Shown here piece by piece: positions 54,974-64,000 of a DNA stretch of 64,000 nucleotides. The notes under the pieces are model-generated. The model was not told the origin of the DNA and searched no databases. It saw only the letters and a program-made list of their open reading frames with translations. Within the stretch, counting starts at the first letter, position 1, and every line of letters starts with the position of its first letter. Source of the stretch: Eledone cirrhosa (lineage: Eukaryota); the NCBI GenBank assembly GCA_964016885.1, contig OZ024747.1:6324001-6388000 (forward strand), given 5' to 3'. A program made the position numbers and the translations under genes.

Positions 54974-55180
54974 TTGTTTCCACTTTTGGCACAAGGCCAG
55001 CAATTTGAAGGCAAGTGGAAAGTACATTAAATCGACCCCAGTGCGTGACTGGTACTTTATTTTATCGACCCTGTAAGAATGAAAGGCAAAGCTAACCTCG
55101 GCAGGATTTGAACTCAGAACGTAAATGATCATTAATAATGCCACAAAGAATCTTCTTTGAGACTCTACCGATATTGCCAA
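54974..55180 (-). mobile_element. SINE-A
   Basis: Family motifs in reverse complement. Confidence 0.8.
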
Positions 55181-55964
55181 TACAATAATAATAATAATGA
55201 TTTCAGCTCCAAGCGTAGAGGCAGCTGTATAGTCAGTTAGTTCGATATCAAAAAATGGCCGGTTCTGGGTGGGTGGGATTGAAATCCCGAAACAAATGGA
55301 AATTGAATATAAGTTTTTTTGTCTTTTCTTTTGGTTAAAATTACCTACGTTGTAAATGCAATCAAGTTGCATTTACGTTAAAAGAAGCGCAATTGTATTT
55401 TTTTTAAATGGATTGTATTTGAAAGTAGCTCAAAATTAAATATTGTCCATAAATTAATCCTTTTGTTGCCATATTTCCAAATCATTTTGAAAAAAAAAAA
55501 AAAAAAAAAATTTCGTAGGATTTAGCAATAAAATTAATAATCTGGTGTTTAGAACATCATACATAAAATTATTACGGAAGGTTTTTAAGTTATTATAAAC
55601 ACTTAAAATAAACAGTTTTTGGTATCGTAGAACCAGAGGCGGTTTCGTATGGTTTGGTATCAAAGGTTTTTTAAAAAATAAAAAAACTGGATAAGAACTG
55701 TGTGTAGATCTGTTTCAATTCAAGTATTTGATAATTTAATATATTCAATTAAGATTTGTAAGTAGTAAGAAGGTCAATGTTGTTCTATGTAGCGCACCTT
55801 TCGTAATCCTGTCCTTGTTACAGACCCAACCTGGCTACCCTGATAGCAATTATTTCAACTACGATATTGAATCTTAACCACAACTCTTGTAGAAGAGTTT
55901 AATCGTGAAATTGGCAACATTCTTCCATTTTAAGTATCATAGAAATTCAGTAAGCTCCATATAT

Positions 55965-56070
55965 AATTGTTTCTACTTTAGGCACAAGGCCAGCAATTAC
56001 CCAGTACATTACTGGTACTTTATTTTATCGACCCCGTAAAAATGAAAGGCAAAGTTAACCTCGGCGGGAT
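55965..56070 (-). mobile_element. SINE-A, 5'-truncated
   Basis: Family 3' half. Confidence 0.8.
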
Positions 56071-56099
56071 AATGAATTGCATTGATAATCAAATGCTTC

Positions 56100-56470
56100 T
56101 TCTCTTCTTCGCCTACTTATTCCTGTGAAGGTCGTAGGGACAGAGTACTCAAACATTCCTTCTAGAGGGTCCTGTCAGAAGCAACCCTCTCCAACCGTGA
56201 CCAGCCAAGTTCATGGATGTTATCCAACTATTTTGCTCGGGGTCTACCCCTGGGTCTCTTGCTGGTTGGGCCTACCCCTGGGTCTCTTGCTGGCTGGTTT
56301 TGCCCGTAAAATCTGTCCAGAGATTCTTTCCTGAGACATTTTAACCCCATACCCATAAAATCGGAGCTGTGATCTCTCAATTCGGGGTGACTCTCTGAAC
56401 TCCGAGCTACACACTCTATCAAGTAATATTACTCCAAACACCCTTCGGCCGCTTGTGTTCGCGATCCAAT
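56100..56470 (-). mobile_element. RTE LINE 3' end fragment
   Basis: RIERSQLRFYG...SKRPRGRP C-terminal motif with frameshifts and a short internal duplication. Confidence 0.75.
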
Positions 56471-56662
56471 TCTTTTATAGACATTATTAAATAATTTAAT
56501 TTTACATAAATTAATGTCAATTACAATCACTTTCTTTTACCAATCAAATACCGTTCATTTTCACTTTACTGTTCGATTATGAACGGCCAGTATAAGAGAT
56601 TGCCGAATTCATGTGATACTAACAGACTTAAAACGAAATTAGAGAACAAATACCATCATTCA

Positions 56663-56713
<51 letters not shown>

Positions 56714-57078
56714 ACTGACTGATGGAATTTAGAAGAGTATTTACAAAAAAAAAATGTTAATGTTTGAAGTTGAAATGTTCGGCTGTGATGTACATTTTGC
56801 CAGAGAAGGAAGTACAACGCTCACAAATGACCCTTCTCGGGACCCCAGAGACTGATAGGAGGAAAGTCATAAGTTATCCTCAAACCGGAGGCCTGTTCCG
56901 AGTCCTTACAACAGATTTAACTCCGTTAAAAAGCCAGGTGGTGATGGATGTAAAACCAGGCGACGGTTTAACTCCACCACCCTAAAAACAAGAACAGTCT
57001 CTCCAACAGGCTTCCAGGCGGTTTCCGTCTACCAAATCTCAGAGACGGGGGGCTATATTATTCATAAGGTCCGTTTTT

Positions 57079-57111
<33 letters not shown>

Positions 57112-57477
57112 TTCTTTTTGCTGTAATGGGGTGAAAAGTTAGTGTGCCAAAGGTAAAGGGGAAATAGTTGAAAGTATTGAAGTAGGAGCTCGATCATAAG
57201 TCAGGCCCTGTTCATAAGGTACTTATTAATCAAACAAGGAACCACGTAGTTGAGAAGCGAACATCTTAACCAAACAGCTATCTATGCCTGGCGTGAACTA
57301 ACTAGGGAAACTGTGCCGTCAAAAATGATGGCAACAGCATTGAATGTATTTAATTCTTGGAATCTTGATTAGTGTACCATGTATACGAGAATTACTAAAT
57401 ATATAGATATATAGCGGTGCCCCAGCATGGCCTCAGCCGGATGGCTGAAACAGGTAAAAGAGTAAAAGAGTATATAT

Positions 57478-57659
57478 AACGAAGAAAGTGTGGTAAGGAA
57501 CCAGGTGGACCATAACGCACCAGAGTACTCAATACTTAGGGTAATAGAGTGGGTAATAGGAAAAGAGCTCGGGTCTTTTCGACCGCTATATCCGGACTAA
57601 ACCAGTAGTATCGAGCTGTCGAAACGGCCGAAGCTCAGCTGTCGGGCCCTTACTCTTTT

Positions 57660-57663
<4 letters not shown>
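57478..57663 (-). mobile_element. (TA)n-associated element with internal hairpin module; copies at 26930-26965, 59685-59775, 63085-63280
   Basis: Shared aacgaag.aagtgtggtaaggaacca.gtggaccataac..accagagtactc block; ataggaaaagag/ctcttttcctat inverted pair. Confidence 0.65.
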
Positions 57664-57721
<58 letters not shown>

Positions 57722-57764
57722 GAAATATTGTTGGCTTCACGCTCACAATAATTTCTATACTTTC

Positions 57765-57808
<44 letters not shown>

Positions 57809-58231
57809 AACAATTATACAAACTGGTATATGTGTGCGAGTAAATTTTAAAGATTTACAGACGGAGCTATATATAAATATACAAACACACGTGGCATATT
57901 AGAAGAAGGTTAGAAAGAATTATTGCAGTTGATAGAATTGATAATACTAGTTGTAAATAATGTTAGCTTGCATTTGAAGAATGAAGGGAGGGAGAAGACT
58001 TATTTTTAGAATGCTTTTCTTTATCTTTTATCCCCCCCCCCCCCTCTCCCCTATCTTGAAGCGTGGAAATAGTTTAAGTACATAATCTACGTTACACACA
58101 GGCACACATTAAGATTAAACATACTGACACATGCATAAAAATACACAAAACAGATAGATTACTCTTTGTTACTATCCTTCAGTTACCACTCAAACATTTA
58201 CTATAATAAATATTTACACTACATTTGTATG

Positions 58232-58296
<65 letters not shown>

Positions 58297-58449
58297 ATGT
58301 ATATATATATGTGTAATATATTATTCATTTGTATTTAATATACTCTACTATGTGTATTGAGTGTGTATACATTAAACACACATAAGAATGAGAGACTGAG
58401 AATAAACGGTTTGATGTGTTATAGAGACATCACTCAAAGTGATATATTT

Positions 58450-58452
58450 GTG

Positions 58453-58496
<44 letters not shown>

Positions 58497-58590
58497 GATG
58501 TTTCTCTCTCTCTCTCTCTAATATATATATATATATATAATGTGTGTGTGTCTAAATATATATATATGTCTCTCTAAATATAAGTGTGTG

Positions 58591-58635
<45 letters not shown>

Positions 58636-58778
58636 GTGTGTGTGTGTCTAAATATATATATATATGTCTCTCTAAATATAAGTGTGTGTCTCTCTTATAT
58701 ATATATATAAATATATATATATAATGTGTGTGTGTGTCTAAATATATATATATATGTCTCTCTAAATATAAGTGTGTG

Positions 58779-58821
<43 letters not shown>

Positions 58822-59684
58822 ATGTGTGTGTGTGTCTAAATATATATATATATGTCTCTAAATATAAGTGTGTGTCTCTCTCATATATATATATATATAA
58901 TGTGTGTGTGTGTCTAAATATATATATATATGTCTCTAAATATAAGTGTGTGTCTCTCTCATATATATATATATATATATAATGTGTGTGTGTGTCTAAA
59001 TATATATATATATGTCTCTCTAAATATAAGTGTGTGTCTCTCTCATATATATATGTATATATATATATATATATATCCAAAATTAAGATAAATTAAATGA
59101 ATTTAATCCAAATCAAAATTATGGGTGTCATGCCATCATATTATAAGGTATCTATTTTTGAAGTTCTAGTCAACTTTATTTGTTACCCACCTAGCTATGT
59201 GTGGTGACACGCTTGTAAACATTCTCTCCTGTCATTGTTCATGTTTTTATATATGTTAATCAATTTCTAGTTATTATATATATATATACATATCTTTCTC
59301 TCTCTCATATATATATACATATCTTTCTCTCTCATATATATACATATCTTTCTCTCTCTCATATATATATACATATCTTTCTCTCATATATATATATACA
59401 TATCTTTCTCTCTCATATATATATATATCTTTCTCTCTCTCATATATATATATACATATCTTTCTCTCTCATATATATACATATCTTTCTCTCTCTCATA
59501 TATATATACATATCTTTCTCTCTCATATATATATATATACATATCTTTCTCTCTCTCATATATATATATATACATATCTTTCTCTCTCTCATATATATAT
59601 ACATATCTTTCTCTCATATATATATATATACATATCTTTCTCTCATATATATATATATCTTTCTCTCTCTCATATATATATATA
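58450..59684. repeat. Two compound TA/TG/TC minisatellites (58500-59077, 59275-59684)
   Basis: Repeated tctaaatataagtgtgtgtctctctc and catatctttctctctc units. Confidence 0.9.
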
Positions 59685-59772
59685 ACGAAGGAAGTGTGGT
59701 AAGGAACCATGTGGACCATAACAGACCAGAGTACTCGATACTTTGGATAGAAGAGTAGGTTCTGACTCATTT

Positions 59773-59814
<42 letters not shown>

Positions 59815-59941
59815 AAAGTTTTATTTAAAATTGTTGGGTTACAACGAGTAAATATTTTATAACTGATATAAAGCACTCAACAAGTTTTGGAGTATATATA
59901 CGATATTAAACAAATGGAAACTATATTTATAAAACCATGTT

Positions 59942-60007
59942 TATTTCATTATACATATTTCAGGGATACCATATTAAAAATATGGCATGCCTTCTTCAGA
60001 TAAAATA
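59942..60007 (-). ncRNA. Minimal type I hammerhead ribozyme, inverted copy of 60089-60154
   Basis: Reverse complement reads tattttat CTGAAGA aggcatgccatatt ttt aatatggtatccct GAAA tatgtat A atgaaata; all core nucleotides present. Confidence 0.8.
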
Positions 60008-60088
60008 TTGATCAACTTCCATTTAAAATGGAAGTTGATCAATATTTTATGGTACGTCAAATTTATTTATAAAACTGCTTATATATTG

Positions 60089-60154
60089 TATTTTATCTGA
60101 AGAAGGCATTCCATATTTTTAATATGGTATCCCTGAAATATGTATAATGAAATA
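60089..60154 (+). ncRNA. Minimal type I hammerhead ribozyme
   Basis: Stem I tattttat/atgaaata; CUGAAGA at 60097-60103; long stem II (agg..ccatatt ttt aatatgg..cct); GAAA at 60135-60138; short stem III AUA-ug-UAU whose 8-mer is self-complementary with G.U pairs; AUA triplet, predicted cut after 60146. Confidence 0.8.
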
Positions 60155-60329
60155 AATATGGTTTTATAAATATAGTTTCCATTTGTTTAATATCGTATAT
60201 ATATATATATACACACACACAATACAAGTACAATATATATCTATATATCAATCAGAAAGTTATTTGACTCTAATATAGTCAGATAACTTCATGAAAAATA
60301 AGTATCAACTGAGATTTTGGCTTAAGTTA

Positions 60330-62420
60330 CATGTATATGTGTGTCTATACATGTGTGTGTATGTATGTCTATATATCTATACGTATGTATATGTGTGTAT
60401 ATCTATACATCTATATGTATGTATATGTGTGTATATCTATACATCTATATGTATGTATATGTGTGTATATCTATACATCTATATGTATATATGTGTGTAT
60501 ATCTATACATCTATACGTATGTATATGTGTGTATATCTATACATCTATATGTATGTATATATGTGTGTATATCTATACATCTATATGTATGTATATGTGT
60601 GTATATCTATACATCTATATGTATATAAATGTTTGTGTATCTATATATCTATACGTATGTATATGTGTGTATATCTATATATCTATACGTATGTATATGT
60701 GTGTATATCTATATATCTATACGTATGTATATGTGTGTATATCTATACATCTATACGTATGTATATGTGTGTATATCTATACATCTATATGTATGTATAT
60801 ATGTGTGTATATCTATACATCTATATGTATGTATGCGTGTGTATCTATACATCTATATGTATGTATATGTGTGTATATCTATACATCTATATGTATATAT
60901 ATGTTTGTGTATCTATATATCTATACGTATGTATATGTGTGTATATCTATACATCTATATGTATGTATATATGTGTGTATATCTATACATCTATATGTAT
61001 GTATATATGTGTGTATATCTATACATCTATATGTATGTATGCGTGTGTATCTATACATCTATATGTATGTGTGTGTGTGTATCTATACATCTATATGTAT
61101 GTATATGTGTGTGTATCTATATATCTATATGTATGTATATGTGTGTGTGTGTATCTATATATCTATACGTATGTATATGTGTGTGTATCTATATATCTAT
61201 ATGTATGTATATGTGTATCTATATATCTATACGTATGTATATGTGTATGTATCTATATCTATCTGGATCTATACATCTATACGTATTTAAATATATATGT
61301 GTATCTAACTATCTTGATCATTTATATATATATATATACGTACATATGATGAGCTATCTATCTGTACATGTGTATATATATATCTTTACATGTGTATATA
61401 TCTATCTTTACATGTGTATATATCTATCTTTACATGTGTATATATCTATCTTTACATGTGTATATATCTATCTTTACATGTGTATATATCTATCTATACA
61501 TGTGTGTATATCTATCTATACATGTGTGTATATCTATCTATACATGTGTGTATCTATCTATCTTTACATGTGTATATATATCTATACATGTGTGTATATA
61601 TCTATCTTTACATGTGTATATATATCTATCTTTACATGTGTATAAATATCTATCTTTACATGTGTATAAATATCTATCTATACATGTGTATAAATATCTA
61701 TCTATACATGTGTATATATATATCTATCTATACATGTGTATAAATATCTATCTATACATGTGTATATATATATCTATCTTTACATGTGTATATATATATA
61801 CATGTGTGTATATCTAAATATACATGTGTGTATCTATATACATGTGTGTATCTATATACATGTGTGTATCTATATACATATGTGTATATAAATACATGTA
61901 TATAAATATGTGTATATATATATACACATATGTATATATATATACACATATGTATATATATATACACATATGTATATATATATACACATATGTATATATA
62001 TATATACACATATGTATATATATATACACACATGTATATATATACATGTGTACATATATACACGTGTATATATATACATGTGTATCTATATACATATGTG
62101 TATCTATATACATATGTGTATCTATATACATATGTGTATCTATATACATATGTGTATCTATATACATATGTGTATCTATATACACGTGTGTATCTATATA
62201 CACGTGTGTATCTATATACACGTGTGTATATATATACACGTGTGTATATATATACACGTGTGTATATATATACATGTGTGTATATATATACATGTGTGTA
62301 TATATATACATGTGTGTATATATATACATGTGTGTATATATACACATGTGTGTATATATACACATGTGTGTATATATACACATGTGTGTATATATATACA
62401 TGTGTATATATACATCTATA
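60330..62420. repeat. Compound TA/TG/TC low-complexity arrays
   Basis: Visible periodicity. Confidence 0.93.
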
Positions 62421-62575
62421 TTATTCATCTATAGTAAAGAGAAGTAGCGGTAGATGTTATTTTTTTATAAAGACCTACCGTTAACCTTCTATCATTTGCT
62501 ATCGAAACGGCAGGAGCTTAACCGTAGGGCATAGAACCCTTATAAAATCGATACATATACACAGGCAAGTGCGAT

Positions 62576-62622
<47 letters not shown>

Positions 62623-62657
62623 ATGTCCAATTATATAAACATAAAAAGAGGAGGGAA

Positions 62658-62785
62658 CTGTTTCTACTTTAGGCACAAGGCCAGCAAATACCCAGTGTAT
62701 TACTGGTACTTTATTTTATCGACTCCGTAAGGATGAAAGGCAAAGTGAACCTCGGCGGGATTTGAACTCACTGCCAATCCATCGC
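62658..62785 (-). mobile_element. SINE-A, internally deleted
   Basis: Family motifs in reverse complement. Confidence 0.8.
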
Positions 62786-63093
62786 AACGGTAGTTATATT
62801 GTGTTCTCAAGTTCTTTATTGTTGTTGGTGTCTTTAAGAAAGGCATGAACATCACCTAATCTTCCCATATTTCTTCTCTCTTCTATTTAAACATAAGTAA
62901 ATCAATAGTTTCCGTAAGTTTATTATAATTATTTTCTGTTATCCGATACTGTGGAGGACTAAAACCAACACACCCAGTATTTAGTTAAGACACATGATTA
63001 GAATGTACAGACCTATGTATGACTGTATAGCAATATATATGTATTAGTATGTATGTATATATGCGTGTGTGTATATATATATGAACATTTCCT

Positions 63094-63186
63094 GATCCCG
63101 ACGGCTGAGCTCCTGCCATTTCAACAGCTAGATCCGAACAGTTCGAATCTAGCTGTTGAAACGGCAAGAGCTCAGTCGTCGGGGTC
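63094..63186. repeat. Imperfect ~46-bp-stem hairpin
   Basis: gatcccgacggctgagctcctgccatttcaacagctagatccgaac-a-gttcgaatctagctgttgaaacggcaagagctcagtcgtcggggtc. Confidence 0.85.
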
Positions 63187-63307
63187 CTGAATTATTACAT
63201 ATTACCCACTCTACTACCCCCAAATATCGAGTACTCTGGTGAGTAATGGTCTAACTGGTTGTTACTGCATCCATTCTGATATATATATAAGAGAGAGGGA
63301 GAAAGAG

Positions 63308-63371
63308 AGAAATGGATTTCCTGATGATTTCCTTCGACTGAAACAGTTCTAGTCCTGTAGAAACCATTTCT
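63308..63371 (+). ncRNA. Type I hammerhead ribozyme, second family, weak stem II
   Basis: Stem I agaaatgg(a)tttc/gaaaccatttct (12 bp plus one bulge); CUGAUGA at 63321-63327; stem II region tttccttcgact; GAAA at 63340-63343; stem III ACAG/CTGT; GUA triplet at 63357-63359. Confidence 0.68.
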
Positions 63372-63847
63372 ATATTAAATATTTATACTCTGCTATGTAT
63401 TGAGTACCTTACTTACTGTGGTTACCCCCGATTGAACCCGGGATACACACACACATATGTGTGTGTGTGCGTAGACACATCACACACAGGCATAAATACA
63501 GCATGTGTATTGTGTATAGTGATAAAAGTGATGTCTGTGTCTCTGTGAGAGAGAGAGAGAAAGAGAGACGTATATACACATCCCATCACAAAAATGTAGA
63601 AAAACTGTTAGACGTACTAAATACACAACAAAGGTGTCATACGACCACACTAGATGGGCTGAAGGAATATATCGCCATTAATAAGAGAACATCAAATATA
63701 AAATACCAAACACACATATGGCTAGGGCAGAACTACTAGTTTATACTAGGAAGACCTTTTTTTAACTTAGTACTTCCATAACATTAAAGAAAAGGTTTAA
63801 GCTGGACAGCGGTCATATTTTTTAAAACATATATGTGTGTGTATATA

Positions 63848-63902
<55 letters not shown>

Positions 63903-64000
63903 ATGTATATATATGTATGTGTGTGTATGTATATATATGTATGTGTGTGTATGTTTATATATATGTGTGTGTATGTATATATATGTGTGTGTATGTATAT

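Follow-up and report, generated by a model that had tools for sequence, protein, structure and literature searches.

Structure of the locus

The window analysed here comprises 64,000 nucleotides (64 kb) of the forward strand of an Eledone cirrhosa contig (OZ024747.1), and towards its right end there lies an inverted repeat that, judged by its likeness to coding copies elsewhere in the genome, is almost certainly composed of two 3' ends, both truncated, from a Penelope-like retrotransposon (PLE) of very high copy number, placed head to head in (TA)n DNA (Table 1). An earlier note on this DNA had reported a 115-bp repeat, of whose positions 113 are indeed complementary (59893-60007 versus 60089-60203, the mismatches being 59939/60157 and 59986/60110); the arms were real, yet the repeat proves to be a palindrome with its centre at 60025, and the right arm, which the note had extended to 60203, stops earlier, its last 8 nt being already (TA)n, so that the element spans approximately 59811-60195. 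On comparison with the coding copy L024, the left arm was found to lack 46 nt between two copies of TATTTTAT; this same arm extends for 82 nt more, as a tail, before it meets its own (TA)n.

Table 1. Features of the inverted PLE insertion and its target, in window coordinates
Feature	Position	Strand	Detail or basis
(TA)n target, left side	59775..59810	.	Sequence; sampled family ends mostly abut (TA)n
pLTR 3' tail, left arm only	59811..59892	-	Same end in sister copies
Repeat of ~25 nt, first copy	59867..59892	-	Two copies in full-length elements (8 copies printed)
Left arm, 5'-truncated pLTR copy with 46-nt deletion at TATTTTAT microhomologies	59893..60024	-	
Left hammerhead	59942..60007	-	Core 59999-59993; GAAA 59961-59958; predicted cut after 59950
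Palindromic junction of both truncated 5' ends	60000..60050	.	Centre 60025; 1-nt loop; 25/25 pairs
Right arm, 5'-truncated pLTR copy, no tail	60026..60195	+	
Right hammerhead	60089..60154	+	Stem I 60089-60096 with 60147-60154; core 60097-60103; GAAA 60135-60138; stem III 60138-60145; predicted cut after 60146
(TA)n target, right side	60196..60211	.	Sequence

The 25-nt junction of the window is present at 6 loci, in two subfamilies, and the 46-nt deletion is absent from the other 5. The insertion is young, as had been proposed, each arm showing 2-3 differences from the locus L173. The T at 60110 in the right hammerhead is a rare allele (13 of 10,335 genome matches); an apparent rule that the arms always differ at this position was discarded as an artefact of searching with the T-bearing arm. 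Neither a further copy of the element nor, as judged by eye, a long frame with a clear protein signature was seen in the 64-kb window. Another dispersed repeat bounded by (TA)n (57471-57554 and 59677-59760; 57615-57647 and 62498-62530) occurs in the window and beside many of the sister loci too, and long TA/CA-rich minisatellites, which are the source of many spurious matches to microRNA families, occupy 60300-62420.

The hammerhead ribozymes

Each arm carries, as the earlier note had recognised, a complete type I hammerhead—CUGAAGA, stem II, GAAA, AUAUGUAU, AUA, and an 8-bp stem I—with the core that defines the type (CUGANGA / GAAA / UH) at a three-stem junction. The self-complementary AUAUGUAU of both arms likewise bears out the proposed likeness to the minimal hammerheads of the Penelope type with a palindromic stem III; the long stem II is present in both arms as well, though not perfect, having one mismatch in the left arm and two in the right. 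A hammerhead descriptor matched just these two sites in the window and had 0 matches in 100 dinucleotide shuffles. The Rfam search returned no hammerhead family among its 26 matches to 59860-60230 (E up to 10), so that the assignment rests on the descriptor, conservation, and covariation; of the 249 Rfam matches in 55000-64000, the best 150 were microsatellite or hairpin noise.

Conservation and covariation were assessed over 22 hand-picked, related arms. The core letters show little or no variation, whereas every one of the four bases is found at N7. In the structure 91.9% of the cells are paired, and two-sided changes occur in 11 of the 22 pairs, 10 of those in stem II; 0 of 500 shuffles matched this result, and slid controls gave 37-56%. 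Since the relatedness of the 22 arms inflates the control, this covariation is to be taken as support and not as a probability.

Stem III occurs among the arms of the family in two forms, both self-complementary, which is what a ribozyme acting as a dimer would be expected to show. Folding calculations give the active monomer a probability of about 1e-4, at -5 to -10 kcal/mol, and the stem III self-duplex -2.2 kcal/mol; for a read-through transcript, which the earlier note had suggested could fold back upon itself, the prediction of -199 kcal/mol, versus the -5 to -10 of the active monomer, agrees with that suggestion. The efficient cleavage by dimers that had been cited as established is at odds with Cervera and de la Peña (2014; PMC4209133), who report that the dimers of minimal PLE hammerheads cleave weakly. 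The ribozymes described there share with ours the type I fold, the small palindromic stem III, the long stem II, and the location in pLTRs, and they differ in stem I, which has 8 bp here, and in the 10.1-11.1 pair, which is G-C in that description and A-U in 15 of our 22 arms. For the Anolis Penelope ribozyme, moreover, PMC11167929 states that protein is required and that cleavage is dispensable for insertion in vitro.

The hammerhead is, in our model, inherited from the pLTR, in which it probably functions by dimerising via its self-complementary stem III, and at the window locus it most likely does nothing, because the read-through RNA is predicted to form a long hairpin and would be an ADAR substrate. 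Nor is a regulatory design needed to explain the divergent arrangement, for insertion ordinarily yields such divergent pairs, to which 76 of the 114 arms sampled belong. Diverged hammerhead families with the same stem I/III layout were also observed in neighbouring (TA)n (L031:5509-5590 on the minus strand, L301, and L307), so that several related lineages share this niche.

The parent element

The locus had been regarded as an ORF-less or retrozyme element of its own kind, which reading does not hold: what lies here is a truncated 3' end belonging to a family that encodes protein, represented by L024 and the full copies. A DNA search of the 3.0-Gb genome with the window element gave 23 matches, and the search for arm copies near a coding frame that the earlier note had proposed was successful, since in L024 a 629-aa frame is followed by this 3' end and preceded by a shorter inverted copy. 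The abundance of the family is apparent from a 20-nt core pattern, which has 10,322 exact matches in the genome and 13 with the T allele of the window, 10,335 in all, against 0 for the reversed control. With a 100-aa piece of the protein we obtained 15,074 genome candidates, 150 of which were scored, and fetched 12 long-frame copies. In 9 of these 12 the arrangement is pLTR-ORF-pLTR with the whole upstream hammerhead, in the order: whole hammerhead, tail, ORF, 3' region, second pLTR; in two of the remaining three the upstream part is cut, and the third, L215, has the same pattern in a slightly shifted alignment and may be counted with the 9. The full-copy ORF has 737 aa from an ATG located some 49-50 nt past the tail end, within a unit of about 3.8 kb. 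At L212 (C4:320,954,300-320,964,200) two near-full copies, both preceded by a pLTR of their own, were also seen in head-to-head orientation, with a tail on one outer end only.

Read from the translations, the protein motifs are DKT, a CxCX5C linker, CxxC, CxH, no CCHH, and RWR. Pfam recognised GIY-YIG in 6 of 69 aligned homologues (best E 1.7e-4) and gave no match for the query protein itself, GIY-YIG included. The reverse-transcriptase (RT) signals are a YRDD motif in the L024 frame, a precomputed PF00078 on one homologue (P0098), and a weak match of the query protein to an RT structure (E 0.44). The named animal homologues of the protein are from Argonauta hians.

The closest relatives appear to be the PLEs of the Hydra clade with a C-terminal endonuclease, as described by Craig et al. 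(2021; PMC8557442), with which the family shares the single ORF, DKT, the CxCX5C linker, the CxxC and CxH motifs that surround the E and N of the endonuclease, the pLTR hammerhead, the (TA)n targets—where most of the sampled family ends also lie—and the inverted 5'-truncated copies with a tail on one end. The differences from that description, the comparison being one of motifs and published description, are RWR instead of RWK, a unit of about 3.8 kb versus "generally <3 kb", a tail of 82-89 nt versus 30-40, and more than 10,000 hammerhead matches. By its sequence, then, the protein-coding family carries Hydra-clade motifs and would fit the description of the clade except for RWK; it may already be among the Hydra families in the supplements of PMC8557442. 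The architecture of inverted truncated pLTRs, hammerhead, and one-sided tail is already known, and the window locus is one of thousands of remnants.

Divergent pairs and their tails

Sampling the surroundings of the first 100 C1 matches in the list gave 68 loci with 114 arms and 38 divergent pairs, two of which loci, L087 and L089, look like one duplicated event. Among the 38 pairs, ordered by position, exactly one tail was found in 34, two tails in 0, and none in 4; were the tails independent, 7.6 two-tail pairs would be expected (p=2e-7 against independence). Inspected by hand, the 4 tail-less pairs resolved into one with a single tail (L119), one with a tail of another family (L101), one partial (L083), and one with none (L120). 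The tail-less ends stop at one fixed point. Among 16 long pairs examined, 12 could be oriented, two of which came from a first, biased search, and in these the short arm bore the tail 7 times and the long arm 5 times.

The spacing of the pairs ranges from 13 to 3,973 nt, with a loop of 0-1 nt in 8 of 28 short pairs. Certain junctions recur, at 6, 36, and 4 loci, several of them at short palindromes; at the one with 36 loci, which is asymmetric, 10 near-identical copies were fetched, the tail being on the left in 4 and on the right in 6. That group had been entertained as a MITE-like family, which candidate we rejected; since the tail changes side within it, a junction hot spot fits better. In the full-length copies a distance of 88-89 nt separates two end points upstream of the ATG, and a copy of the ~25-nt repeat follows each of them after 8-10 nt (8 copies; e.g., L211:2430-2600). 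Larger inverted duplications that include flanking DNA, together with convergent tail-to-tail pairs, were noted at L007, L229/L230, L301, and L302, some of them edited along one strand.

Editing marks in sister copies

Search patterns forcing one A>G change gave 23 and 110 matches (100 of the 110 listed), and those forcing one T>C gave 27 and 90. Nine fetched divergent pairs, chosen by patterns that themselves force one A>G, share sense A>G changes on both arms (12, 9, 7, 3, 12, 14, 7, 6, and 3 of them), which fall within about 108 nt; L031, L157, L294, L297, and L298 are clean, in three pairs the references are noisy, and the edits of L296 may be inherited ones. In the complete lists of T>C matches there is no pair with at least 3 sense T>C changes in common, L304 sharing one. 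The shared A>G and the lack of shared T>C clusters thus point to a sense RNA as the template of both arms.

Between L182 and L179, 56 of 56 differences are A>G, affecting 56 of the 143 adenosines of the arms and 0 of the 34 of the tail; this confinement to the paired arms supports a fold-back RNA in vivo. The edited fraction by 5' neighbour, pooled over three loci, was 0.39 for U, 0.37 for A, 0.16 for C, and 0.05 for G (p=2e-5), and no preference for a 3' G was found at the edited sites (p=0.29). Both traits agree with ADAR hyper-editing as characterised in PMC5625713, where a 5' G is depleted, octopus and other invertebrates have no 3' G preference, and Penelope is heavily edited in lizard RNA; the editing there is at the RNA level, whereas our A>G clusters belong to sister copies within the assembled genome. 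The clusters tested hence carry the ADAR neighbour signature, and RNA editing is their likely source.

In a second class, A>G changes run along one DNA strand over both arms (L300, L305, L306, L307, L158, and L244), from which it is likely that such pairs gave rise to fold-back transcripts that were edited and reverse-transcribed. At L305:2600-4000 (C2:369.869 Mb) the hyper-edited palindrome lies just 3' of what appears by eye to be the 3' end of a LINE, and A>G-like changes extend into the repeats between the LINE end and the palindrome, as might result from 3' transduction. Arms with T>C clusters beside unedited partners were seen at L149:4517-4700, L153:4500-4730, and L152:4500-4600; the single T>C arms of L149 and L153, which loci appear to bear two tails and possibly reflect a switch between two RNAs, are not accounted for by the twin-priming model discussed below. 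The partner arm was as close as the nearest foreign arm in just 12 of 33 sampled pairs, because the subfamilies are near-identical.

One edited string accounts for 34 of the 90 matches of the T>C pattern, and these are dispersed. The edited unit is carried by a second, similar element, within the 3' region; the ORF DNA of this element is about 60% identical and its open frames reach 789 aa (G000:C2:55,123,500-55,132,500, that is L281, and L282-L292). Within this passenger, 16 of the 19 polymorphic arm columns are A/G, versus 0 of 6 in the host ORF. The sense-arm GAAA has become GAGG or GAAG in 24 of 24 passenger copies scored, by which sequence changes the palindrome is judged ribozyme-dead; in the account of the Poseidon element of Anolis (PAc; PMC11167929), insertion in vitro without cleavage agrees with such a state. 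Edited whole palindromes had been considered as proof of the mobility of the bare unit, an argument that was weakened, the amplified one being a passenger and the others lying in larger copied regions; as the edited unit rides in the second element, it gives no evidence for a bare palindrome moving alone.

Origin of the inverted pairs

The explanation that best accommodates the locus, and which we regard as having good likelihood, is that truncated PLE 3' ends were inserted in (TA)n by the priming of one sense RNA from both target strands; this twin priming, at two fixed start sites, is, from the comparison of sister copies, probable. The endonuclease would nick both strands of the (TA)n, one 3' end priming where the tail ends and the second one some 88 nt farther upstream, with a copy of the short RNA repeat next to each priming site; the two cDNAs would stop near the same point, and their 3' ends would be joined, often at short palindromes or with a loop of 0-1 nt. 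At the window locus the outer end of the tail would be the distal RT start site and the end of the right arm the internal one, and the ~25-nt repeats are candidate binding sites for a protein dimer.

Experimental precedent comes from the Anolis Penelope protein, a predicted dimer, which according to PMC11167929 nicks both strands in vitro and extends them, starting at two sites that flank the tail. Poseidon PAc, as presented there, shares with our family the two fixed end points flanking the tail, the AT-rich targets, and a hammerhead near the ORF start; our family would belong, however, to a different clade, each inverted insertion here would use both sites, one each, and these sites, upstream of the ATG and separated by 88-89 nt, are each then followed by the ~25-nt repeat. 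The one-tail rule, the side of the tail, the two end points, and the Anolis data in vitro together favour two primings per insertion. The shared edits would also be expected if the first cDNA had served as template for the second arm, or if one arm had been converted by the other. The window's own arms contain no A>G cluster, so that the origin of the window locus is read from its sister copies.

Self-priming, in which one cDNA, or in the 2013 proposal an antisense template, folds back at a hairpin and copies itself, was how palindromes at inverted junctions were read in PMC3846280. The recurrence of junctions at 6, 36, and 4 loci, several at short palindromes, is in keeping with it, and a fold-back likewise yields identical edits in both arms; nevertheless, a single fold-back predicts that the tail is either absent or borne by the arm made first, which is the longer one, and the short arm bears it in 7 of 12 pairs, while at one asymmetric junction the tail is found on both sides. 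Being on the wrong side, the tail makes fold-back of a single cDNA fail despite its explaining the shared edits. An antisense template, for its part, predicts shared T>C clusters, and the T>C match lists contain none with at least 3 changes, versus 9 pairs sharing A>G. A loop of 0-1 nt cannot form within one strand, and 8 of the 28 short pairs have such a loop; self-priming is, in sum, an unlikely origin of these pairs.

More improbable still is the first reading of the locus, that of a non-autonomous, ORF-less, retrozyme- or MITE-like unit moving as a whole palindrome, even if a single junction recurs at 36 loci in one short unit, of which 10 fetched copies are near-identical, and palindromes edited along one strand were copied back into DNA. 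The junction of the window occurs in two subfamilies, 5 of its 6 loci being without the deletion; the spacings vary from 13 to 3,973 nt; the tail changes side within the 36-copy group, unlike what copying of the whole unit would produce; and those edited units with readable flanks sit inside larger copied regions (L300 being unclear). The non-LTR retrozymes reported in PMC7229834 and bioRxiv 2026.07.22.740005 are also short, non-coding, provided with a type I hammerhead, and derived from or related to PLE pLTRs; they are, however, tandem head-to-tail repeats, whereas the window has head-to-head ends of a coding element, and tandem head-to-tail units without a coding parent were found neither at the window locus nor in the full copies. 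That the palindrome or the A>G clusters should be artefacts of sequencing or assembly is scarcely credible: inverted repeats do trouble long reads and polishing, but the ends in the one-tail asymmetry are biological and fixed, all 56 of the 56 differences are A>G and leave the unpaired tail untouched (0 of its 34 A), and the same edited string occurs at 34 dispersed matches.

Significance

The window locus is an ordinary insertion product of a PLE with Hydra-clade motifs, and the value of the analysis lies in the family-level evidence on insertion and inherited editing, not in that locus. The origin of the inverted repeats and one-sided tails of PLEs is an open question, which circumstance gives the family its importance: the proposed models can be told apart by the one-tail rule and by which strand carries the shared A>G clusters, and the A>G shared by the arms in the sense strand speaks against the antisense self-priming put forward in 2013 (PMC3846280). 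Our literature search, which took in few subscription journals, found no paper on twin priming in PLEs or on edited copies fixed in DNA. We lean, by a modest degree of belief, towards a broader proposal, drawn from the sequence data: that ADAR edits may serve as single-molecule barcodes revealing twin priming on one sense RNA, with a repeated RNA motif marking both of its start sites, and that hyper-edited fold-back transcripts may be rewritten into germline DNA, the ribozyme-dead passenger being carried by a second element whose ORFs are intact and acquiring further A>G during its spread. The A>G clusters would then be a DNA-level record of A-to-I editing, probably in the cephalopod germline, and the passenger copy is genomic evidence that the hammerhead can be lost.
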